DNA from: a virus
Length of the DNA: 64,000 bases
IMG/VR virus record: IMGVR_UViG_3300021960_000060
Coordinates: 4,070 to 68,069 of that record
Direction: 5' to 3' (one strand)
In this document: positions 3,257-31,371 of the stretch, piece after piece
Layout of the letters: the number at the start of each line of letters is the position of its first letter
How positions within the stretch are numbered: the stretch's first letter is position 1
Notes under the pieces: model-generated
The model's input: only the letters and a program-made list of their open reading frames with translations
What the model was told of the DNA's origin: nothing
Database searches by the model: none
Position numbers and translations under genes: made by a program

Positions 3257-3436
3257 TTATTCGTTCGGTAATCCAATTATCTTCATCGTCTCTTGTTGCT
3301 TATAATATAGTTTGCAAAAAGATTTTGCTATATTTTTTAGAGACTCATTATCATTACATCCATCTATTTCAGATGCGACTTGCATATATGCAAAACTTTT
3401 AGAGAGATTTGTTAATTTTATTTCATCAGGATTCAT
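3257..3436 (-). CDS. 59-aa helical protein, NblA-like (phycobilisome degradation adaptor-like) candidate
   Basis: Missed by the ORF track: MNPDEIKLTNLSKSFAYMQVASEIDGCNDESLLKNIAKSFCKLYYKQQETMKIIGLPNE. Start overlaps the end of the upstream ORF. Confidence 0.55.
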   Translation of the reverse strand: MNPDEIKLTNLSKSFAYMQVASEIDGCNDNESLKNIAKSFCKLYYKQQETMKIIGLPNE

Positions 3437-3657: not shown

Positions 3658-6600
3658 TTATGCTAAAGCAATTACGCGAAGATCTTTTGCTCTTGGAACA
3701 AATGCTTGACTAGTAGAAGTCATTACCAATTTAATTCTATAGGATCTAAAAGCAGGAAGCTCGTCAGCAGTGAATGAATATTCCTTAAAGTTTATTTCTT
3801 GAGATTCAAATCCCAATTCATTAGAAGGAACTATAAACCTATCAGGTTTTCCATCACTATCTTCAAGTTTGATAATCTGATTTTTATAATCAAGATTATC
3901 ATATCCTGGGAATGGGAAGAATAATGGGTCAAAGTTTGGATTATCTCCAATTGAATAGAATGCACGTATATCTGAGTAATTATTCACATGTGCATTTAAA
4001 AGAATCTTAATGGAAGTTGCTGGAGATTCTAAACCTATTTCTTTAGAAATATATTGGAATGCTGAAGGATCATCTGTAGAACTAGATACTCTAGGATCTG
4101 TAGAATAATCTGTTATAACTTTATTGACTCTATTTGAAGTCAAAATAACAGCTACTCTTTGAGAGTCAATTACTGGAGATAAAAGTGGATTTGATGTTGC
4201 CAACGTCAATCTCATATTCATGGATTTGTTGCCAGTAAGCAATCCAAGTTTTTCATCTTCATTAACCTTTGAACATACAATTCTAGGTTCATCAAGATAA
4301 TTTGCAGAATTCACTGTTATTGGATCAAATCCAGCGTCAATGAATGGAATTTCTTTTCCATCAATACTCTTACCAGTCACACTTCTAATACTTGCACCAA
4401 CAGTTGTTCCAGGAACAGTCAAGTTTTGAACAATAGGAGTTATAATTTCAAAAGGAATGTTTTGTGTTGCTTTTGCATTATATCCACCAGAAGTTTTGGT
4501 CAAACTTTGATATAATTTTGGATAACCTGCAACAGTTCTATCGGTTCCATCTAGAGACATGTCCAATTTAATATTGTACGAATCAAAAGTAATTGGATTA
4601 CTTACAGATACATTAGAAAGATTGTGTACTTTATTAATTCTCTTAAGAGAAATGCCATTTAGTTCATACTTATAAACTGGAGTTCCAACTGAATATGTAA
4701 GTGGATTGGATCCTCTTACAATATTACCCTGAAGATCATTACCATTCACTGAAGTATATTCAATGATTTCATTTCCAATTTTTATGTAACCTGGATTTGT
4801 TGTCCCAACTCCAACTCCTTCAAATGTTGAGAATTGACTTGCATCGCTAATTTGAATTGATCCTGTAGAATCAGAACTATAGTTTATGCTTAGTTTTGAT
4901 GGTCTTATGTCAGATGCTACGTCAGAGATCTTTACATAATCTTCTCCAGAATACATTCCATGATTCTTATGGTTTACTTTAATATGCAAACCATCAGAAA
5001 CTGTAGTTATAGAATCTACAGAAACGTTTCCACCAAGTTCCCAGTTTAAGTTTGTAGTAATACCTGCACTAGAAACATATCTCATAGTATTTGCAACACC
5101 TGTTAAGAAATCACCTTGAACGTTATCTACAATCAATTGATTAGTATTGGCAATACTGACAATTGAAAATCTTGCATTTCTTCCAACTTCAAGAGAACCA
5201 ATATTTGGAATCGATAAGACATCACCTGCAACATATCCATTACCTGTAGCAGAAATAGTTGCCGCAATAGCAACACCATCTTTAATTGTAACGTCTGCAG
5301 TTGCTCCTGAACCTTTTCCACTAACAGTGCTTAAAACAACACCTCCAAAGATAAATTGACCAGATCCTGGAGTATATCCAATACCTGCATTTATAATATT
5401 AAGATTGCCAGTGGCTATTCCTGCATTTCCAACATAATTACCTGTTGCATCAGAACCCCATTGCATTATAGTATTTCCAAATTCTAATGTAGTATCTCCA
5501 ATAGTAGAAGCAAGACTGATTCTTACTTTTTTTGAATTCATTTCAATAGTATTTGGAAGAAGATTTGCAATCTGATTATTGCCGGAAGTCAATTCCGGAT
5601 TATAGAAGTCAACAGTTCCAGTATCTAAGAAATCTGCTCTGTAAAGATCAAATTTCAAATCTTCCCATTGACTTGGTTCCCAAGTAGAAGCATTTTGAGA
5701 CTTGAATAGTGATCCAAGAGTAGGTTGATTGGAAACAAATGATTGTGTAAGAATGTCATTTTCACCAACTCTTGAAATGAATACGCTATAATCTGCAGAC
5801 TGAGATAACATAACAATAGCATACTCTGTTTCTCCTTTCAGATAAACCGGAGCATCAAATTCAAAGAAAGTTATAGCAGATCCATCATCGGATGTTGTAA
5901 TTTGATTTGGAAACAAGAATACTTCAGAAAGTGGTAAAACTTTTTCAGAAGGAGTTCCTAATTCCATAGTTCTTAACTGAAGAACTACTGGAGTACTTCC
6001 AGCATCGGTAGTATTAAAATATACACCACATTTGGTAACAAAGATTCCTTCCAATTCTTCAACAAAGAATGATTGAGCTAAAGGATCCCATCTTCTTGGT
6101 GGTGCTGGTGGTGGTCTCCTCGGTGGTGGTGGCGGTGGTGGCGGTGGGAATGCCCATATTCTAGTGTTAACAATCGTAGAAGAGACTACTTGAGTATCTG
6201 CAACTCTTCTAATATCTCTAGATTGATTTTGTTGGGTCTGAGTGATTCTAGCATTTCTAACAGAAACAATGTTTTCTTGAACTGTTTCTAATGTTCCAGA
6301 TGCTTCAAATGATTCACTTGCTAAGGTAGTTGCATCATCAACGTCACCATCTTCATCGTTAATTAGTGTAAATGATTTTGATCCTGTCTCAAATCTTGGA
6401 TTTACTGTAATATTCGGATTTGGTACAAAGAAACTTCCAGCAACAGTAGCAGTTATATCAGATACAAATCTGACTGCAGAAACTGTTGCCTGAGCACCAC
6501 TAGTTCCTCCAACAAGTACCATTCCTTGTTGAATAAATCCACTAAATGTTCCTTCAGCAATATTTGAAAGAGAATTTGTATCAACGTTTAAAATTGTTGA

Positions 6601-9600
6601 AGTTGAAGAATATGTTGAAGTGAGAGGTGCAGTAGTATATGGATTCTCGGGATATGTTAAGACCGGAACATCATAAGATCCTGTTCTATGATTCTTTTGT
6701 GCAACTCTAAATTCAATTCTTGGAGAAATATCTAGAGTATCTGGCCCAAGACCAGTATTAATAACGCTTCCAGTTACTGTCTCTCCTACTTGGAAGACAC
6801 CAGAAGTCATTGAAATTTCAATGAGTTTGGGTACACAGTAATTTGTTACATCAACACCATCAAAGAATACATAAACTCTAGTGTTTGGTTTCAATCCATT
6901 GCCAATGAAAGCAATGTTTCTAGACCTCATAAAGGGAATCAAATCTCTACTAACAACTCTATCTCCTACAGAAGTATTATCAATCTGTTCAGAGAAAGTT
7001 GCTCTTGTTCCACTTCTATTACTTACACCAGTATCAACAACATCAAGAAGTTGATCTTGAACAGTATCCCAGCGAATTCCCCATCCAAGCCAGTTAGTAG
7101 TTGTTCTAGTCTGAGTTCTTGTAACTCTTTCTTGACCAGTCCAATTATCTATCCAAGAATTCCAAACGGTTGGAGCAAACCCAGTTTGTGGATCAATGTT
7201 TAGATTTTCTACTGCATCTCTCAGAACTCTTGCATAATTACCTTCAACATTAATAAACTTAGCTTCAAGTCTTACAGTATCAACCCAAACATCAGATGCT
7301 GGAGTAAGTGAAACTGATCCTCTCCAGAAATTTAAAATAAAAGGAGTTACACTTTCAACTCTTGTTCCAAAGTTCTGTGTTAAATATTCGACTTCAGAAT
7401 AATCTAGAGTGATAATATCACTAGATTTTTTAATATTAATACCTTCAGGTTGACTTGTTGATCTGTCTGTATTTGGATCGAACCCTACAACAGGTCCAGG
7501 AATAAGGTCAATTGCATTTGTATAATGAGAAGGTCTTAACTCTTTATTTTTTACATCAATACTATTCTTAAATAAAATAGTAGGTTCTTGTGCTAATAGT
7601 GAAGTGAAATTGTCTACAAAGAATCCGGATTTAAATCTTACTAGTCCTTCACTATCTGGAACAAATAAATTTGCAGTATTTGTTTCAAGTAAAGAAAGAG
7701 AAGTATAATACTCCAAACTCTTAATTCGTCTCTCAAGATTTTGGATGTCAGACATCTTATATCTCTTATGATCTAAAAACTCAATTTCAGCATCTGAAGT
7801 TTTATAGAGATATGGTGGTAAATTGATTGTTGCAATTTCTAGAGAATCGTCAACAACTACAGGTTTTTCTGGTCTTTCTGAAGGAGTTCCATATTTAACT
7901 TGAAAAACACCATCTTTTGTTAAGAATATTCTATCAATTCTTCCCAAGAAGAACGAGAATGTTGTTTGAATACTCTCGTCAGATGCTAATATATTTGCAG
8001 CAGAATTTCCAGAAGAGTTAAATGATCTTCCATGGAATTCTAGAGGAGACCTTAATAGAGATTGTTCTGTTGCAAAATCAGAAACTCTTGGTCTTATATC
8101 AATAATATCTGAATTTCTTGTGAAATTAACTGTTCTAATTTCATTTGTATAATCAAATCCATTTGCATATGAATTTACAGTCGTGATATCTCCATCATCT
8201 GCAGAATCATAATATCCTCCAGAATAATAAATGATAAGTTTTTTAGTTGGTTCTTGAACGCCAGGATTTCTTACAATTGTTCCATAATCATAGAAAGTTC
8301 CTTTTTGTCCTGTTTTATATGAGAAATTTGATGAAACATCAAAACTGTCTGCTGATAATGTTTGTACAATTGAAGTTGAATCAGACTCATAAGAAATAAT
8401 TGTTTCTCCTTCAGTAAAAGTATTTTTATTTCTATAGATAAATGATATTTGAGTAGAAGATATCTTACCTGCAATTATTGCAATTGCGCCACTAGATTGT
8501 CCATGAATTTCTTCTCCTATGATAAATTCTGAAGTTGTTGCGGATGGAGTTGTTATTGAAGAAAGGATTGCTTTTGGTGGGGTCGGATCACTTGTATTTG
8601 CAGACTCATAAATTGCATGAATATCTACAATGTCAGGAACATTTAAACAAATAATGTTATCTTGGACTCTAGTTCCAAAGGGAAATGTTCCATAAACTAA
8701 TCCATCGTTAAGAGTAGTTGCACCAATTCCAGATCCGGCAAGTTTAGATGCACTTATAACAATAGAAGAAACTCTATTCTTTTTCTTGTCTTTTGCTTTT
8801 GGATTTGACTTTCTTAGAGTTGCAATAAGTGTTGCGCCAATGTTATCTGTACCTAGATTGTTAATTTGCAGTTGTGATCCACCAGATATCAAAGCAAACA
8901 TATCTGATGTCAATGCTTCATAAGATCCGTCACTTCTAACAAGGGAATATCTTTCCTCATCAAAAGGTAAAAATGTTTCATTGGTTCCTGCACTTAATGC
9001 AACTGATAATTGATTATTTGCAATATTTACTGTAAACTCTTTTCTAATTGTTAGTGTTGATGTAGTTAAATCAACATCCGAAATATTTTCCTTTGGTAAT
9101 TTAGTAAAAAGAGTATTGTCTGTGGATATATCTAAATTGGAAGTCATTACTGTTAAATCAGTAATATCTAATTGCGTAGAGGGAAGAGATGAAGAAGTAA
9201 CTCCAACGACTGTTTCTACTTGAGCAACCTTTACAGAATTTGTTCCAACTTCAGTAACTCTTGCAAATACTGGGTTACCTAAAGAATTGTCAGTATACTT
9301 GATAATATCATTATATCTTACTAATGTTCCTGGAAAAACATCATTGAGGCTCGTAATCGTACTTATTCCTGCATTAACTGCACTAACTGTAGCAATTCCT
9401 ATTATGTACCTATCAGATTGAATTACGTCTGCAGAGAAAGTTATTCCTGCTCCAACGACTCCATGAACAGATTTGACATTTGAAGAATTGTTTGCAGTTA
9501 ATGCTGCGCCAACGTATCCAACAGATTCTCCGTTAAAAGAAAATGACTCATTTGGAATAAATGATCCTTCCGTATTGTAAACTTGAATACTTCTTGAATC

Positions 9601-11121
9601 TATTACACTATTTAAAAGGTAACCTGTAGCTCCACTATTTTCTCCTTTAATATGAGTAGGAGTGCTCAATGTTACTGGATAGTTTAAAGTTATATCAGTT
9701 GTATATTGAACATCATATAGTCCAATTTCCCAATCGTTTAAATTTTGATTGGATAAACTATAAGATCCAGACTCTAATCTAAAATCATAAACTCTTGCCA
9801 CACCAATTTCGCTTCCAGAAGCAATAGTTGCAGCAGAACCCACTCGTTGGTCTCTCAAACTTAAAACAAAAGTATTTCCTATACCAATTTTTGGAGAACC
9901 GTAGATATTGTTCAAACCAAAAGTTGGTCCAGTATTATAAATTATTGATTGGTCTTTTAAAGTTTTTGTTGTTCTTGGTTTTTCAGAATCTAAATATATT
10001 GCTCCATTTGTTTCAACTCTATATCCTCTTACAAAAGCTTTACCAGAAGAAATTTTATATAATGCCAATTCTTCATCAGGAGTTGAACCTGAATATGTAA
10101 ATTGACCTTCTCTATAAATTCCCCTATTTCCTTTTCTATCGTTTAAAGAATCTTTTACAGATATTTCAAATGGACTGACTGTATAATCTCCAGACTCTTC
10201 ATAAGTTCTTTTTGCTAATTCCTCTGAAAGAACACTTTTATCAGTTGTTTGTGGTTTTACTTTTAAATTTCCATCAACAATTCTGGCAAGTTCGACAAAA
10301 TTAGTATCATCAAAATCTGTTAAATCTTTTTTAAATAGACTTACAGTAATTTTCATTCTATCTGCTCCTGGAGCAGCATAATTACTATATCCTTGAGAAT
10401 TATCGTTTAAATCTTCATCCAAGTCCGAATTGATAATTTCTTCATTAATAAAAAATCCAACTCTTGCATTTGTATTCGTAGTATACTGACTTAATATTAA
10501 TTTCTCTTCCTTTACATTGACAAACTGTCCTCTAAAGAAATATACTCCTTCTAAAATAAGAAAGACTGTCCCCAAAGAAGTAGCATTATTGGAAATCGTA
10601 GATGCAAAAGGAGATCCAGCAGATATTGAAGTATTTCCTAATAATCCAGTTTCAATGGTAGTATTTGATACTAAGTTTTCTCCATCAGAAAAAGTTTCTG
10701 TTACATTATCTTGAGTATTTGATCTAACATATCGGACGTATAAAGTTAAATTTCCTCTTTCAGAATCTGAAGGAAGCAGAACATTATCAACTAATGCAGT
10801 AACGCCGGACGTTTGCCCAGTAATAGTCATTCCTATTAAAGTTTCTGCATATGCAGAAACAGGAATTCCTAGAAAATTATTCGATAATTCTACTGCATTA
10901 TAAAATTGATTGTAGCTAGTATTTCCAGGAATTACTTTAGCACCTTCTTTAAAGAAGTGCTGTCCAAATTTTTTAATTTGGTTTTGAAGTATTGACTGTA
11001 ATCCAGTTAATTCTCTAGCCTGAATTGGATATCCAGGTTTAAATAAAATTTTATAGTAATCGTCATTTGCATCAAAATCGTCAAAATATGGAGCTACGTT
11101 TAAATTTGTTTGCTGAGACAT
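3658..11121 (-). CDS. Large virion structural protein (DUF4815/VrlC-like, baseplate-associated)
   Basis: 2487 aa; N-terminus TNLNVAPYFDDFD...LFKPGYPIQARELTGLQSILQ, plus RFKSGFFVDNF and DPLAQSF motifs; lies downstream of gp8. Confidence 0.85.
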   Translation of the reverse strand: MSQQTNLNVAPYFDDFDANDDYYKILFKPGYPIQARELTGLQSILQNQIKKFGQHFFKEGAKVIPGNTSYNQFYNAVELSNNFLGIPVSAYAETLIGMTITGQTSGVTALVDNVLLPSDSERGNLTLYVRYVRSNTQDNVTETFSDGENLVSNTTIETGLLGNTSISAGSPFASTISNNATSLGTVFLILEGVYFFRGQFVNVKEEKLILSQYTTNTNARVGFFINEEIINSDLDEDLNDNSQGYSNYAAPGADRMKITVSLFKKDLTDFDDTNFVELARIVDGNLKVKPQTTDKSVLSEELAKRTYEESGDYTVSPFEISVKDSLNDRKGNRGIYREGQFTYSGSTPDEELALYKISSGKAFVRGYRVETNGAIYLDSEKPRTTKTLKDQSIIYNTGPTFGLNNIYGSPKIGIGNTFVLSLRDQRVGSAATIASGSEIGVARVYDFRLESGSYSLSNQNLNDWEIGLYDVQYTTDITLNYPVTLSTPTHIKGENSGATGYLLNSVIDSRSIQVYNTEGSFIPNESFSFNGESVGYVGAALTANNSSNVKSVHGVVGAGITFSADVIQSDRYIIGIATVSAVNAGISTITSLNDVFPGTLVRYNDIIKYTDNSLGNPVFARVTEVGTNSVKVAQVETVVGVTSSSLPSTQLDITDLTVMTSNLDISTDNTLFTKLPKENISDVDLTTSTLTIRKEFTVNIANNQLSVALSAGTNETFLPFDEERYSLVRSDGSYEALTSDMFALISGGSQLQINNLGTDNIGATLIATLRKSNPKAKDKKKNRVSSIVISASKLAGSGIGATTLNDGLVYGTFPFGTRVQDNIICLNVPDIVDIHAIYESANTSDPTPPKAILSSITTPSATTSEFIIGEEIHGQSSGAIAIIAGKISSTQISFIYRNKNTFTEGETIISYESDSTSIVQTLSADSFDVSSNFSYKTGQKGTFYDYGTIVRNPGVQEPTKKLIIYYSGGYYDSADDGDITTVNSYANGFDYTNEIRTVNFTRNSDIIDIRPRVSDFATEQSLLRSPLEFHGRSFNSSGNSAANILASDESIQTTFSFFLGRIDRIFLTKDGVFQVKYGTPSERPEKPVVVDDSLEIATINLPPYLYKTSDAEIEFLDHKRYKMSDIQNLERRIKSLEYYTSLSLLETNTANLFVPDSEGLVRFKSGFFVDNFTSLLAQEPTILFKNSIDVKNKELRPSHYTNAIDLIPGPVVGFDPNTDRSTSQPEGINIKKSSDIITLDYSEVEYLTQNFGTRVESVTPFILNFWRGSVSLTPASDVWVDTVRLEAKFINVEGNYARVLRDAVENLNIDPQTGFAPTVWNSWIDNWTGQERVTRTQTRTTTNWLGWGIRWDTVQDQLLDVVDTGVSNRSGTRATFSEQIDNTSVGDRVVSRDLIPFMRSRNIAFIGNGLKPNTRVYVFFDGVDVTNYCVPKLIEISMTSGVFQVGETVTGSVINTGLGPDTLDISPRIEFRVAQKNHRTGSYDVPVLTYPENPYTTAPLTSTYSSTSTILNVDTNSLSNIAEGTFSGFIQQGMVLVGGTSGAQATVSAVRFVSDITATVAGSFFVPNPNITVNPRFETGSKSFTLINDEDGDVDDATTLASESFEASGTLETVQENIVSVRNARITQTQQNQSRDIRRVADTQVVSSTIVNTRIWAFPPPPPPPPPRRPPPAPPRRWDPLAQSFFVEELEGIFVTKCGVYFNTTDAGSTPVVLQLRTMELGTPSEKVLPLSEVFLFPNQITTSDDGSAITFFEFDAPVYLKGETEYAIVMLSQSADYSVFISRVGENDILTQSFVSNQPTLGSLFKSQNASTWEPSQWEDLKFDLYRADFLDTGTVDFYNPELTSGNNQIANLLPNTIEMNSKKVRISLASTIGDTTLEFGNTIMQWGSDATGNYVGNAGIATGNLNIINAGIGYTPGSGQFIFGGVVLSTVSGKGSGATADVTIKDGVAIAATISATGNGYVAGDVLSIPNIGSLEVGRNARFSIVSIANTNQLIVDNVQGDFLTGVANTMRYVSSAGITTNLNWELGGNVSVDSITTVSDGLHIKVNHKNHGMYSGEDYVKISDVASDIRPSKLSINYSSDSTGSIQISDASQFSTFEGVGVGTTNPGYIKIGNEIIEYTSVNGNDLQGNIVRGSNPLTYSVGTPVYKYELNGISLKRINKVHNLSNVSVSNPITFDSYNIKLDMSLDGTDRTVAGYPKLYQSLTKTSGGYNAKATQNIPFEIITPIVQNLTVPGTTVGASIRSVTGKSIDGKEIPFIDAGFDPITVNSANYLDEPRIVCSKVNEDEKLGLLTGNKSMNMRLTLATSNPLLSPVIDSQRVAVILTSNRVNKVITDYSTDPRVSSSTDDPSAFQYISKEIGLESPATSIKILLNAHVNNYSDIRAFYSIGDNPNFDPLFFPFPGYDNLDYKNQIIKLEDSDGKPDRFIVPSNELGFESQEINFKEYSFTADELPAFRSYRIKLVMTSTSQAFVPRAKDLRVIALA

Positions 11122-29501: not shown

Positions 29502-29632
29502 AGGATTAATTATATTCTCGGAAAATTTTTTTGGTTTCGATATTTATAGATCGATTTGTCACCTCTGTAGGTTAGGGTAGTATGCGATTTTTATATACAC
29601 AACGCCCCCCATAAAACACTGCTGTTAAATGT

Positions 29633-29661
29633 ATAATAGCACGAAGGTTAACTGTTGTCAA
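29633..29661 (-). promoter_or_regulatory. sigma70-type promoter
   Basis: TTGACA-17 nt-TATTAT. Confidence 0.65.
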
Positions 29662-29685
29662 CCCCCATGCTACTAAGTATCACAT

Positions 29686-29820
29686 TCAGAACAGAATCTC
29701 TGCAATCTCATTCACATCTTGCTCACTGGCAATATCAGCAGCAATAACATCTAGGATCGATAAGATATCGTTGCCAGTGTTACCAACCTTGAGCATACCA
29801 AGTGCAGTTTCAAGAGACAT
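29686..29820 (-). CDS. 44-aa acidic peptide A (paralog of 30792-30884)
   Basis: Missed by the ORF track: MSLETALGMLKVGNTGNDILSILDVIAADIASEQDVNEIAEILF; shares GNDILxILxxI and leader elements with peptide B. Confidence 0.75.
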   Translation of the reverse strand: MSLETALGMLKVGNTGNDILSILDVIAADIASEQDVNEIAEILF

Positions 29821-29848
29821 AATAAAGAAGAAAAGTGTTAGTTAGTGA

Positions 29849-29876
29849 TGGTGAGTTTAATGACATCACCAGGTCA
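29849..29876 (-). ncRNA. Compact H-type pseudoknot in the leader of peptide A
   Basis: UGAC-C-UGGUGA-U-GUCA-UUAAAC-UCACCA: S1 UGAC/GUCA, S2 UGGUGA/UCACCA. Confidence 0.65.
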
Positions 29877-29892
29877 AAGTAGTCGCGCTAGA

Positions 29893-30108
29893 TCAATACT
29901 GGTCGCTGCGACGACCTGACAGACAGCAGCGATATTGTGTGTCTGTTGCTTGTAACTTAGTGCGTCTCTTATTACCTTGAAGACGAACACCAAACAATGA
30001 CCTTTTAGGTCCTCTTTGAGGATTTAAACGTGTCACCTTAACATCGCCACGAATTTCTGCGATGAGCAGATCTAACGGAGTTGATGCTGCAATGTCAGAA
30101 ATAGTCAT
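29893..30108 (-). CDS. 71-aa basic early protein
   Basis: ORF directly downstream of repeat-promoter copy 1. Confidence 0.65.
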   Translation of the reverse strand: MTISDIAASTPLDLLIAEIRGDVKVTRLNPQRGPKRSLFGVRLQGNKRRTKLQATDTQYRCCLSGRRSDQY

Positions 30109-30135
30109 GGGGTGAATCGTTCTCTCACTACTAGT

Positions 30136-30154
30136 ACGCTTTAGAGGTGAGTAA
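30136..30154 (-). promoter_or_regulatory. Repeated promoter-like element, copy 1 (consensus TTACTCACCTYTAAASTGT)
   Basis: TTACTCACCTCTAAAGCGT; one of 8 copies, all intergenic and upstream of minus-strand genes. Confidence 0.8.
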
Positions 30155-30171
30155 TATTATTCTTACACAGA

Positions 30172-30348
30172 TTACCAACGATCAGGATTACTTAGATCCT
30201 CTACGTAGCTGTCAATCACCTTCTCAGATCCTTCTAATGTGAATAACTCTTCCCAGTTAATCTGATGCGGATCAAAATCATTCATAACCTCTAAATCCAA
30301 CGTGATGCGATAACGTTGTTTCTGTGCCTGACTGATAGCGACTGACAT
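30172..30348 (-). CDS. 58-aa acidic early protein
   Basis: Missed by the ORF track: MSVAISQAQKQRYRITLDLEVMNDFDPHQINWEELFTLEGSEKVIDSYVEDLSNPDRW; has its own sigma70 promoter. Confidence 0.75.
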   Translation of the reverse strand: MSVAISQAQKQRYRITLDLEVMNDFDPHQINWEELFTLEGSEKVIDSYVEDLSNPDRW

Positions 30349-30377
30349 GATTGGTGTCCTGTGGTGATGACTTTACT

Positions 30378-30406
30378 ACTATAGAATGCCTGAGGAATAT
30401 TGTCAA
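30378..30406 (-). promoter_or_regulatory. sigma70 promoter, predicted TSS about 30371
   Basis: TTGACA-17 nt-TATAGT; a late TATAAATA also lies at 30419-30426. Confidence 0.75.
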
Positions 30407-30481
30407 TCTTCTAAGGGTTATTTATAAAAAAGTCTTATATTTTACAAATGTCAAGTCCCGGAAATACTTATGACCGATCGG

Positions 30482-30510
30482 TTGACATTTCTGCGCGTGT
30501 GTGATAGAGT
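30482..30510 (+). promoter_or_regulatory. Divergent sigma70 promoter facing a non-coding region
   Basis: TTGACA-17 nt-TAGAGT; the longest ATG ORF seen downstream before 30760 is about 15 codons. Confidence 0.6.
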
Positions 30511-30527
30511 GCTCGCTTAGATAACAA

Positions 30528-30611
30528 CAACTAGAGACATTTAATTAATGATCTAAATGATCAACTAGAGACATTTAAATCATCACAAGTACAAGACTCA
30601 GAGACATCAAA
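30528..30611 (+). repeat. Three direct repeats at a 33-34 bp period (CAACTAGAGACATTTAA x2 plus one degenerate copy)
   Basis: Exact 17-mers at 30528-30544 and 30562-30578; GACTCAGAGACATCAAA at 30595-30611. Confidence 0.85.
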
Positions 30612-30736
30612 ACCACTCAATATGAGAGTAATGGATACTATCCTGAGAACGTTCTCAATAATAGTATAAAAAAGCAAAGTATATTTATAATACCATTTAA
30701 AAACGTTTTTTAATGAATAAGTGTATTAATTGATAC

Positions 30737-30761
30737 AAAAAAGAGAGGAATGACCCTCTCT
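30737..30761 (-). terminator. Rho-independent terminator downstream of peptide B
   Basis: AGAGAGG-GTCATT-CCTCTCT followed by a T-run on the minus strand. Confidence 0.75.
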
Positions 30762-30791
30762 ATGTCTTATTCAGTTATATGGACTAAGTGA

Positions 30792-30884
30792 TCAATAGAG
30801 GGCCTCAATTGCTTCAAGGATGAGAAGAATATCATTACCATTCTGTGCAGATTCAAGAGCAAGGAAGAGATCAGAATTAGACAT
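30792..30884 (-). CDS. 30-aa acidic peptide B (paralog of 29686-29820)
   Basis: Missed by the ORF track: MSNSDLFLALESAQNGNDILLILEAIEALY; followed by a terminator. Confidence 0.7.
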   Translation of the reverse strand: MSNSDLFLALESAQNGNDILLILEAIEALY

Positions 30885-30911
30885 TTAAAAGTGTTAGTTA
30901 GTGGGTGTATT

Positions 30912-30939
30912 CGGTGGGTTTAGAGTCATCACCAGGACT
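30912..30939 (-). ncRNA. Compact H-type pseudoknot in the leader of peptide B
   Basis: AGUC-C-UGGUGA-U-GACU-CUAAAC-CCACCG; S1 covaries with copy 1 (UGAC/GUCA to AGUC/GACU). Confidence 0.65.
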
Positions 30940-30946
30940 ATAGGAT

Positions 30947-31024
30947 CTAGAGTATAATTAAGATCAAAACGATTGAATAGAAACGAGCATAGATTGATGC
31001 CCACTCTTTCTTAGTCTTAACCAT
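30947..31024 (-). CDS. 25-aa putative membrane micropeptide
   Basis: MVKTKKEWASIYARFYSIVLILIIL; start overlaps the stop of the upstream ORF. Confidence 0.45.
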   Translation of the reverse strand: MVKTKKEWASIYARFYSIVLILIIL

Positions 31025-31371
31025 CATGAGAAGATATAACCATTAGTGAATGTTTCGTTCTTGTATACATTCTTTCCATTAATTGCACCAACGAAGAGTC
31101 TTACATACCATTGAAAGTTCTTCTGAAATACTCCTTCTCCTCTCTCACAGAACTCAGAACAGAGTGCATTAAGTCTGGATTTAGTTGTATTAGACTGATA
31201 ACCACCATCATAGATTGTCATCGAATCATCAGAAACTTCTGCAATCTTGTTACCATGAAGACGAACGATTGAGATTCCTGTCTCTTCATTAAAGTGAACT
31301 GTTGTATTAGCATTAGACCAGTTTTGATTTGACTGGATTGCTTGGCACATTTGGGATTCGATTTTACGCAT
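31024..31371 (-). CDS. Conserved cyanophage early hypothetical protein
   Basis: MRKIESQM...LHGNKIA...DGGYQSNTTKSRLNAL...VFQKNFQWY. Confidence 0.8.
   Translation of the reverse strand: MRKIESQMCQAIQSNQNWSNANTTVHFNEETGISIVRLHGNKIAEVSDDSMTIYDGGYQSNTTKSRLNALCSEFCERGEGVFQKNFQWYVRLFVGAINGKNVYKNETFTNGYIFS

Follow-up and report, generated by a model that had tools for sequence, protein, structure and literature searches.

The coremin motif (xrRNA_C), an exoribonuclease-resistant RNA of Beny-, Cucumo- and other RNA viruses, has the form GUCCGAAGACGUUAAACUAC, comprising a first hairpin (hp1) of 4 base pairs (bp), a conserved spacer of approximately 10 nucleotides (nt) and a second hairpin (hp2) on which resistance to Xrn1 depends (PMC6546385, PMC10520033). 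This article concerns two copies of a 28-nt RNA element, very probably an H-type pseudoknot and probably a relative of coremin, in a viral DNA stretch of 64,000 nt (IMG/VR record IMGVR_UViG_3300021960_000060, positions 4,070 to 68,069; hereafter the window). The 68-kb fragment to which the window belongs derives from a T4-like Synechococcus cyanophage (CheckV completeness estimate 32 %), and its nearest records are Bellamy and S-SCSM1, at approximately 79 % identity. While giving the evidence for the fold, the text also assesses the element's recurrence among viruses and hypotheses on its role in front of a small peptide gene.

Mutagenesis indicates that the loop-closing pair of hp1 must be pyrimidine-purine (PMC6546385), and that the loop must begin with C or U and end in A-D, both being required (PMC6546385, PMC10520033, PMC10321173). 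The loop consensus is Y-G-(N)n-A-D, and within the spacer, GUUAAACUAC, positions A15-A17, C18, U19 and A20 are essential (PMC6546385), the two U's before AAA being tolerant of change (PMC6546385, PMC10520033, PMC10321173). Loops of 6, 7 and 8 nt still stall Xrn1 (PMC6546385, PMC10520033), and both the octaloop CGCAAAGC and the heptaloop CGAGUAA are resistant (PMC10520033). A pseudoknot between loop and spacer has been hypothesised, the three-dimensional basis of resistance being described as unsolved (PMC6546385, PMC10520033, PMC10321173). Coremin motifs also act on ribosomes, blocking them during scanning and stimulating -1 frameshifting in vitro (PMC10520033, PMC10321173). A screen yielded a further type, xrRNA_WCC, an H-type pseudoknot with a one-nucleotide first loop (L1) and a second stem (S2) of 3 bp, in which hp2 is required for Xrn1 stalling and dispensable for ribosome stalling; its natural examples come from two RNA viruses only (PMC10321173).

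Both 28-nt strings that the original prediction had reported are found in the window letter for letter, in the reverse complement of positions 29849-29876 and 30912-30939. The strand is thus the minus strand, and the small open reading frames (ORFs), the leader 17-mer and the terminator described below had been overlooked. The copies, with the parts of the first (S1, stem 1), are as follows.

29849..29876, minus strand: pseudoknot copy 1, UGAC-C-UGGUGA-U-GUCA-UUAAAC-UCACCA; covariance model 42.8 bits
29876-29873 and 29864-29861, minus strand: copy 1 S1, 5' strand and 3' strand
29872 and 29865, minus strand: copy 1 L1 and junction U
29871-29866 and 29854-29849, minus strand: copy 1 S2, 5' strand and 3' strand
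29860-29855, minus strand: copy 1 A-rich linker, UUAAAC
30912..30939, minus strand: pseudoknot copy 2, AGUC-C-UGGUGA-U-GACU-CUAAAC-CCACCG; covariance model 39.6 bits

In copy 1, S1 has 4 bp and S2 has 6 Watson-Crick bp. The S1 of copy 2 also has 4 bp and, just as had been proposed, differs from that of copy 1 at two pairs with pairing kept (UGAC/GUCA versus AGUC/GACU), each altered on both sides; its S2 combines 4 Watson-Crick pairs with a U-G wobble and an A-C mismatch. A 1-nt loop across a 6-bp S2 and a 6-nt loop across a 4-bp S1 suit the classical H-type fold. The core common to both copies, CCTGGTGATGNNNNTAAACNCACC, has two occurrences in the window, where 100 shuffles give an expectation of 0.00. 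The covariance-model search that had been suggested as a check, run over the window with filters off, returns these two copies only, the next match scoring 11.9 bits (E 0.4), and beyond the window the element is found again in numerous viral contigs as well as in cultured Kyanoviridae. A generic descriptor scan of the 68-kb contig revealed no extra copies, its matches beyond copy 1 equalling those in shuffled sequence (0-4).

The element is in all likelihood a genuine conserved H-type pseudoknot. The structural support is comparative, because single-sequence folding does not support a pseudoknot by itself: nested minimum-free-energy (MFE) folding of single copies recovers the S2 hairpin only, with z = -1.86 and -0.84. 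A strict core pattern has 34 exact loci in viral contigs, among which S1 takes the forms UGAC/GUCA, AGUC/GACU, UGUC/GACA, CGAC/GUCG and AGAC/GUCU. A loose pattern of 14 bases leaves three of the four S1 pairs and the entire 3' strand of S2 free and serves as an internal control; its 131 unique matches comprise 27 with a perfect S1 and 104 with an imperfect one, and YCACC stands right after TAAAC in 25/27 of the former versus 2/104 of the latter. Sampling that is independent of the RNA was obtained through the peptide encoded downstream. Three profile scans gave at least 331, at least 496 and at least 161 matching stretches, which overlap, and 80 loci were kept from each; with earlier loci, these amount to 286 peptide ORFs and 183 unique upstream regions, 109 of which fit a descriptor of stem 1 plus an A-rich linker. 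Since a generic pseudoknot finder discriminated poorly on the peptide upstream regions (a score of at least 9 in 58/88 observed versus 160/440 shuffled), it was replaced by column-wise covariation.

For this purpose, an alignment of 56 sequences (A6) was assembled from the subset with loops of 8-9 nt, the window copies and one further locus (L193), S2 being unused in the selection. In A6, S2 is 84.8 % paired, versus 66.8 % when columns are shuffled and 30-49 % when the register is slid, and its covariation score is 0.466 versus 0.149 in shuffles, a value reached by 0/500 of them. Both sides vary at pair 10-29 (GC 37, UG 14, AU 4), pair 11-28 (UA 24, CG 14, GC 9, AU 2) and pair 12-27 (GC 26, UA 5, UG 3, AU 2, CG 1), although many rows are closely related and these cell counts exceed the number of independent events. 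The variants of S2 include UGGUGA/UCACCA, UGGAGA/UCUCUA, UGAGUA/UACUCA and UGAGUA/UGCUCA, as well as UGGUAA/UUACCA, UAGGUUA/UAACCUA and UGUC/GGCA; a lineage with the loop CUCGGCAA has poor S2 pairing. Invariant or nearly so are C6-G16, C7, A14, U21, A22-24 and C25. The many G-U cells fit an RNA of the peptide's strand, and all 51 model matches in peptide loci (51/51) lie on that strand. Together, the compensatory changes of S1 and S2, the G-U pairs and the strict bias for one strand show that selection acts on the RNA, and the compact H-type pseudoknot with compensatory changes that had been proposed from two copies holds across many sequences. Besides the relatedness of the rows, two points count against the fold: its stems are short and its single-sequence folding is unremarkable, and the 100 % pairing of S1 in A6 is partly circular, the filter having demanded S1, so that independent support for S1 comes from the loose-pattern scan.

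Rfam 15 holds no matching family. Over the whole window there were 0 matches at gathering score, at 29600-31100 with E<=10 only two unrelated weak matches, and in 8 related loci 0 matches, in a comparison that took in preQ1-I, SAM-II/V, Downstream-peptide and cyanophage motifs. The element is new as far as Rfam is concerned; its novelty is lower than had been assumed, as a closely related motif is already in print for eukaryotic RNA viruses, while its occurrence in phages was not found in the texts searched. The main texts of PMC6546385, PMC10520033 and PMC10321173, where searched, hold no mention of UGGUGA, phage, bacteria, prokaryote, DNA virus or RNase J. The literature on exoribonuclease-resistant RNA with RNase J or phage, consulted partly by title and the start of the abstract, yielded no natural phage or bacterial example. 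Likewise, the passages obtained from the literature on cyanophage pseudoknots do not describe the element, and the supplements of a 2023 catalogue of 10,006 candidate RNAs (PMC10690425) may list it.

In each of the complete genomes of phages S-SCSM1, S-H35, S-RIM4 and S-H38, there is one strong model match, directly upstream of the peptide gene (annotated 'hypothetical' or without annotation), and in all four the pseudoknot lies between that gene and a Kyano_Gp96 homologue. The cyanophage carriers are T4-like Kyanoviridae, with the peptide gene in the early region. At E<=0.01, the model matches 49/80 peptide-anchored loci, many of which had supplied sequences to it, versus 0/80 gene 32 loci. 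Among 66 instances of the element (class A), the pseudoknot ends a median of 30 nt before the ATG, and 24-33 nt before it in 58/66; the intervening leader is 4 % G, versus 19 % in the background. The stop codon of an upstream ORF lies 5-25 nt (median 9) before S1 in 50/66, the upstream ORFs being diverse. A terminator-like hairpin with U-tract occurs within 110 nt downstream of 92/177 peptide ORFs versus 4/152 control windows, at a median of 12 nt past the peptide stop. The recurrent unit is therefore a pseudoknot, a structure-free leader of approximately 30 nt, an ORF of 30-68 amino acids (aa) and a terminator. In the window, the remaining parts of the two units and their neighbours are as follows.

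29821..29848, minus strand: leader 1, 28 nt, G-free, contains CACTAACTAACACTTTT, ends at ATG
29686..29820, minus strand: small ORF 1, 44 aa, MSLETALGMLKVGNTGNDILSILDVIAADIASEQDVNEIAEILF; member of the uncharacterised peptide family
29893..30108, minus strand: ORF upstream of copy 1, 71 aa, without family match; its stop is 16 nt before S1
30885..30911, minus strand: leader 2, 27 nt, G-free, contains CACTAACTAACACTTTT
30792..30884, minus strand: small ORF 2, 30 aa, MSNSDLFLALESAQNGNDILLILEAIEALY; short paralogue of the same peptide family
30734..30761, minus strand: intrinsic-terminator-like hairpin AGAGAGGGTCATTCCTCTCT with U-tract, 30 nt past ORF 2
31024..31371, minus strand: gene upstream of copy 2, Kyano_Gp96 homologue (PF23790, E 5.9e-51)
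30378..30406, minus strand: sigma-70-like promoter, TTGACA-17-TATAGT, 11/12, a consensus match only

The two small ORFs are homologous (…NGNDIL.IL…) and start 27-28 nt 3' of their respective pseudoknot copies, with the 17-mer, invariant and G-free, in between in both leaders. Leader 1 is predicted to be unstructured (MFE 0.0, computed for the identical copy in contig L027). The terminator-like hairpin closes the unit of copy 2, which is separated from its upstream gene by a spacer of 84 nt. There is no sigma-70-like site directly upstream of either copy; by its position, the promoter at 30378-30406 could drive an operon of ORF 30172-30348, ORF 29893-30108, pseudoknot 1 and peptide 1. Between divergent promoter-like sites there is an AT-rich gap with a 22-nt direct repeat, CAACTAGAGACATTTAA…, at 30528-30549 and 30562-30583 (plus strand; 91 % identity, spacing 34) and apparently a third, weaker copy near 30597; the repeat may be an operator or an origin-like iteron.

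Several further observations concern the leader. A box, CT(A/T)NCTAACAC(TTT), recurs 10-20 nt before the peptide ATG, e.g. at window 29831-29847 and 30887-30903, and in many loci the same box is seen again a few nt upstream of the pseudoknot (…TAAGTAACAC…); it may be a translation signal or a phage promoter element. In two contigs (L021 and L029, oriented 9463-9829), an unrelated ORF of 46 aa separates the pseudoknot-leader from the peptide gene, with the pseudoknot still adjoining the Gp96 homologue, an example of small-gene insertion into the module. No claim is made for a pseudoknot at the transcription start, the -10-like hexamers before S1 in some lineages overlapping conserved coding sequence. 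Mimicry of Shine-Dalgarno (SD) and anti-SD pairing (GGUGAU versus UCACC) was rejected, other S2 variants, such as UGUC/GGCA, not being SD-like. Marine RNA libraries gave contigs that are 90-95 % alike only, among them contigs of two oligo-dT libraries covering 30685-30939; such contigs cannot prove transcription or map RNA ends and were left unused as evidence.

The peptide family comprises 543 clusters (E<=0.001), all named 'hypothetical', and searches of the peptides against Pfam, PHROGs and PADLOC gave nothing significant. The ORF 1 peptide is predicted to be a helical hairpin (AlphaFold2 predicted local distance difference test score 79.7), and a fold search against the Protein Data Bank returned no match below E 3. 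Members have a conserved N-terminal core that is helix-turn-helix-like (M/LLRQGNTGxEILxILD…) and then an acidic tail, the last residue being F, W or Y in 146/172 unique members (often …PTxxxIxF). An acidic tail with a terminal aromatic residue is reminiscent of the partner-binding tails of single-stranded-DNA-binding (SSB) or clamp-binding proteins. Two or more paralogues in tandem are common within a genome, and two database proteins of 107-117 aa score double and are probably fused copies. What is marked out is thus an abundant, uncharacterised family of cyanophage peptides, the expression of which is evidently under strong post-transcriptional selection.

The motif is also found outside cyanophages. 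Small contigs resembling those of RNA viruses (L022, L016, L026 and L139) carry an identical octaloop variant right past an ORF stop. In L139, which is dicistro/marna-like by its capsid domains, the exact motif is at 4597-4623, 14 nt past the stop of the capsid polyprotein, with UCACG as the 3' strand of S2. In L016, it follows an ORF with a weak RdRP_4 match (E 8.7e-4, below the cut-off), and L022 and L026 are of unassigned affiliation and without family matches, L022 having a tandem pair at 3285-3343. The exact motif is present as well in a phage contig of low GC content (L017). In 596 Gb of prokaryote genomes there are two exact matches only, both in Lactobacillales prophages homologous to L017; chance alone predicts a few matches in a database of that size, and the two found share their context as well as a perfect S1. 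In these prophages, the motif comes after a terminator and before a scaffold gene. Matches to this leader region extend to Enterococcus phages phiFL4A, EFP1 and AE4_2; of these, the two that were aligned (phiFL4A and AE4_2) have the motif. The Lactobacillales phages show a compensatory change in hp2 (UACCG/CGGUA versus UACUG/CAGUA), and in the Enterococcus phages S2 is lengthened by CC inserted in the loop together with GG in the linker. Across L017, L584, L585, L586 (phiFL4A) and L587 (AE4_2), the motif, hp2 and a third conserved hairpin (GCGG…CCGC) are seen between the terminator and the SD sequence of the scaffold gene, i.e. at the head of the capsid operon.

The element probably belongs structurally with the coremin-type motifs. 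Its S1 has the 4 bp of hp1, and the closing pair is C6-G16 in 56/56 A6 sequences, a pyrimidine-purine pair as coremin requires. The A6 loop begins with C (>=90 %) and ends with an invariant A followed by U or A, examples being CUGAGUAA and CUGAGUAU; at the second position there is an invariant U, and the G comes third, one place later than in the coremin consensus. In the spacer, U21, A22-24 and C25 are invariant or >=90 %, with U or C as the next base, and match coremin up to U19; beyond the U19 equivalent, the phages have the variable 3' strand of S2 instead of the coremin AC. L017 and the prophages read GACGUUAAAC. The topology is that of a Watson-Crick coremin: nucleotides of the hp1 loop pair antiparallel with the 3' part of the spacer to give S2, and column 7 alone forms L1. 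In cyanophage copies, hp2 is missing, 22/24 having an MFE of 0 to -0.5 over the 32 nt downstream. All six of the non-cyanophage copies (6/6) are followed within 0-3 nt by further structure, with an MFE of -4.4 to -12.1 kcal/mol, which is an hp2-like hairpin in five and, for the first L022 copy, the second tandem copy. From such predictions, RNA-virus-like contigs and Firmicutes phages have a full coremin-like architecture, and cyanophages keep the pseudoknot core only.

Taken together, these features make the 28-nt pseudoknot very probably a conserved cis-acting element, lying in the mRNA leader ahead of a small peptide gene of the early region. Its S1, with the invariant C-G closing pair, and its S2, crossed by a single C (L1), would place the A-rich linker UUAAAC for the S1 minor groove, making it an expanded, Watson-Crick-paired relative of coremin. 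Where the peptide cistron begins, the fold would be a mechanical roadblock, stopping ribonucleases that come from the 5' side, whether the 5'-3' exonuclease RNase J or RNase E acting from a 5' end, and possibly also ribosomes from the upstream gene. The outcome would be a short, stable and well-translated message consisting of pseudoknot, G-free leader of approximately 30 nt, small ORF and terminator. Of the four roles that the original prediction had listed, a block to 5'-3' exonucleases is the one favoured, through the resemblance to coremin and xrRNA_WCC, and we infer both the nuclease resistance and the identity of the nuclease from that likeness. We assign a probability of approximately 45 % to a mechanical roadblock that protects the 5' side of the peptide message, a reading drawn from the measured properties of coremin-type motifs and the anatomy of the unit.

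Several considerations weigh against a roadblock to ribonucleases. Bacteria are not known to possess Xrn1, and the block of RNase J or RNase E is an assumption. RNase J is presumably present in marine Synechococcus, a point that the family search does not establish, S. elongatus being among its controls only; that search gave two strong matches in the Lapidilactobacillus genome and one weak match in an Enterococcus nangangensis record. The invariant U at the second loop position stands where coremin needs G, and the protected 5' end is argued by analogy, as the marine RNA contigs cannot map ends. Cyanophage copies lack hp2, which is strictly required for the Xrn1 resistance of coremin (PMC6546385, PMC10520033, PMC10321173); that requirement is reported for motifs with a 3-bp S2, and not for the stalling of ribosomes (PMC10321173). 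Finally, an element that did nothing but stabilise the message would have no need of the tight 30-nt spacing to the ATG, which hints at a connection to translation initiation. Caution is called for mainly on account of this spacing and of the lack of hp2.

The spacing bears directly on the first of the alternatives, control of the type known from gene 32. The T4 gene 32 operator consists of a pseudoknot with a very short L1 and a long unstructured leader to the start codon. That the T-even phages have a gene 32 operator pseudoknot, and that it is without an Rfam model, is stated in section 2.6 of PMC10690425. By analogy, the cyanophage pseudoknot would be the nucleation or boundary site from which a single-strand-binding protein (gp32 or similar) coats the leader and closes off the start codon, so that peptide synthesis would depend on how much of that protein is free. 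The layout agrees, with a one-nucleotide L1, a 6-bp S2, a structure-free leader (median 30 nt, 4 % G) and a start codon at a tightly constrained distance. Membership of the T-even gene 32 operator class, which the original prediction had suggested from the geometry, is not supported, the likeness being confined to the layout of pseudoknot plus unstructured leader: class A occurs in 0/80 gene 32 loci (E<=0.01) and in none of the gene 32 leaders of five complete genomes, and the single strong match in each of four genomes adjoins the peptide gene. In addition, the same motif occurs in RNA viruses and in Firmicutes phages without gp32, and its invariant unpaired nucleotides match the structural needs of coremin, which require no protein partner. 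Such control is unlikely, though the other leaders found before the same peptides also bear on it.

These alternative leaders are unrelated in sequence and likewise end in an A-rich stretch. Class B reads AGGG-aaUGAGaugcg-CCCU-auaaagaca-CUCA, with UGAG/CUCA alternating with UAAG/CUUA, and is carried by L165, L170, L176, L179-182, L201 and L227, among others. Class C (L188, L212 and L215) reads GACCC-…GGGAAUGAG-GGGUC-auaaaauaua-CUCAUUCCC, with an S2 of 9 bp (GGGAAUGAG/CUCAUUCCC). Both are pseudoknot-capable and have AUAAA-rich linkers. Class D has the form CUGGGC … GGAGAC-loop hairpin … GUAAGACCCAG; 23 of its 80 pattern matches stand before peptide genes, and it is also found before gene 32 in phage S-H38 (L413, upstream of 1372), L509 and L548, there right after a sigma-70-like promoter. 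Since its pattern has a variable gap, approximately 100 chance matches are expected; only the 25 with a peptide gene or gene 32 downstream were used, and the remaining 55 were set aside as chance or unrelated. A class D site is also seen in Bellamy (L389, about 2390-2440), and other class D loci fall within L498-L575. None of classes B, C and D matches Rfam. Peptides that are identical over 28 residues can have leaders of different classes (L199 and L200, class A; L201, class B). Such interchangeable modules point to a role that depends on shape rather than on a ligand or a specific sequence. They are also what a sequence-independent binder would tolerate, and the presence of class D before both genes implies that peptide genes and gene 32 can share leader modules, so that both observations speak for gp32-type control. 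Some gene 32 leaders (L456, L467, L476, L481 and L486) have, by eye only, a 4-bp hairpin (GAGG, a loop of 8/9 nt, CCUC) with a loop CCU/CCC that can pair with AGG/GGG approximately 11 nt downstream; it may be a small pseudoknot with covariation.

The substitution of unrelated compact pseudoknots at the same place would also suit a translation insulator. Here, the fold would lock away the sole G-rich segment, keep the landing pad single-stranded and stop upstream ribosomes or scanning subunits, making initiation on the peptide ORF independent and efficient; this is compatible with a stabilising role. The position 5-25 nt (median 9) past the upstream stop in 50/66 instances and approximately 30 nt before the ATG agrees with it, as does the ability of coremin motifs to resist ribosomal unwinding, which the Watson-Crick type retains without hp2 (PMC10520033, PMC10321173) and which fits the hp2-less phage form. 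Nevertheless, the upstream stop codon already ends translation ahead of the pseudoknot, copy 2 is 84 nt away from its upstream gene, and the motif at the start of an RNA-virus 3' untranslated region (L139) is left unexplained. A barrier to ribosomes as the chief function thus appears rather unlikely, slightly more so than gp32-type control.

The other roles are far less probable. A small ligand-sensing riboswitch of the preQ1-I size class, which had been among those proposed, might be suspected from the compact H-type fold, the A-rich tail, the several invariant unpaired nucleotides and the occurrence in unrelated viruses. It is made very improbable by the lack of an Rfam riboswitch match even at E up to 10, of any expression platform (the 3' strand of S2 ends approximately 30 nt before the ATG and no terminator follows the pseudoknot) and of a metabolic link of the downstream gene, as well as by the structurally unrelated leaders that interchange before peptides identical over 28 residues. 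A DNA-level boundary of recombination cassettes is similarly improbable; the block would then supply the homology by which small genes are shuffled within the hyperplastic early region, and its RNA structure would be incidental. Near-identical pseudoknot-leader blocks do flank different peptide paralogues and other small ORFs (L021/L029), and leader modules are exchanged between otherwise similar genes, but the signs of RNA-level selection (compensatory changes, G-U pairs and strand bias) mean that such a function could add to, not replace, an RNA function. A recoding signal for the upstream gene, i.e. a stimulator of -1 frameshifting or read-through, would draw on the position 5-25 nt past the upstream stop and on the in vitro stimulation of -1 frameshifting by coremin-type pseudoknots (PMC10321173); it is rendered most improbable by an X_XXY_YYZ site ending 5-9 nt before S1 in 0/50 instances, a frame relation of upstream and peptide ORFs spread 14/16/20 over the three phases, and -1 and +1 extensions that are short (medians of 5.5 and 5 codons). 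Type III antitoxins (ToxI) are defined by a tandem array of ~36-nt repeats beside an endoribonuclease toxin gene, and the suggested ToxI-like antitoxin or pseudo-antitoxin can practically be dismissed, small pseudoknots being the sole feature in common: there is no tandem array (0 repeats found; the window copies are single and 1 kb apart), the six neighbouring proteins have no PADLOC defence or toxin match, and the copies lie in mRNA leaders of a peptide gene.

Returning to the mechanical roadblock, the occurrence of the motif in two groups of phages allows a broader, and slightly more tentative, proposal, namely that double-stranded (ds) DNA phages of bacteria carry natural exoribonuclease- or ribosome-resistant RNAs of the coremin fold. 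Cyanomyoviruses would cap a tiny early mRNA with an hp2-less version that has six Watson-Crick bp, and Enterococcus and Lactobacillales phages would place the full version ahead of the capsid operon; the target in both would be decay of the RNase J type (5'-3'), and the motif would be a mechanical device used across kingdoms. If true, the viral strategy of exoribonuclease-resistant RNA extends to bacterial RNA decay and offers a stabiliser part of 28 nt.

Comparison with the described systems shows where the element stands. It shares with the gene 32 operator of T4, T2 and T6 an H-type fold, a very short L1 and a place at the 5' edge of an unstructured leader of an early gene; it differs in not lying upstream of gene 32 and in having no sequence relation. 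With the frameshifting pseudoknots of luteoviruses (BWYV and PLRV), to which the coremin authors make comparison, it has in common a size of 26-28 nt, the H-type and an A-rich loop over S1, whereas here there is no slippery site or frame relation and the stem lengths are inverted (S1 4 bp, S2 6 bp). The likeness to coremin is closer. Both have a 4-bp first hairpin with a pyrimidine/purine closing pair, a loop with a pyrimidine first and A-D at its end, and then (N)UUAAAC-Y with AAA and C invariant, so that the invariant phage nucleotides are those found essential in mutagenesis (PMC6546385). Both also lie a few nt past a preceding stop codon and occur naturally in tandem (here in L022), and in the RNA-virus-like and Firmicutes-phage copies a second hairpin directly follows. 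The differences are the 8-nt phage loop, whose second position has U instead of the G required by coremin, the six Watson-Crick/wobble pairs that this loop forms with the bases right after UAAAC, in place of the coremin UAC, and, in cyanophages, the missing hp2 and the carrier, a dsDNA phage mRNA leader in a host without Xrn1. In xrRNA_WCC, S1 likewise corresponds to hp1, L1 is a single nucleotide, hp1-loop nucleotides form an antiparallel S2 with the 3' portion of the spacer, and a second loop, A-rich, is proposed to lie in the S1 minor groove; one natural example, in a picorna-like virus, lies 8 nt past the last ORF (PMC10321173), a position comparable to that in L139. Its S2 has 3 bp versus 5-7 bp here, its L1 is G versus C, and its Xrn1 resistance needs the hp2 that cyanophages lack. 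In place of its two natural RNA-virus examples, the phages provide many contigs in which the pairing of loop and spacer covaries naturally in Watson-Crick form, and this covariation, if the relationship is true, would supply the missing natural evidence for the loop-spacer pseudoknot hypothesised for coremin.

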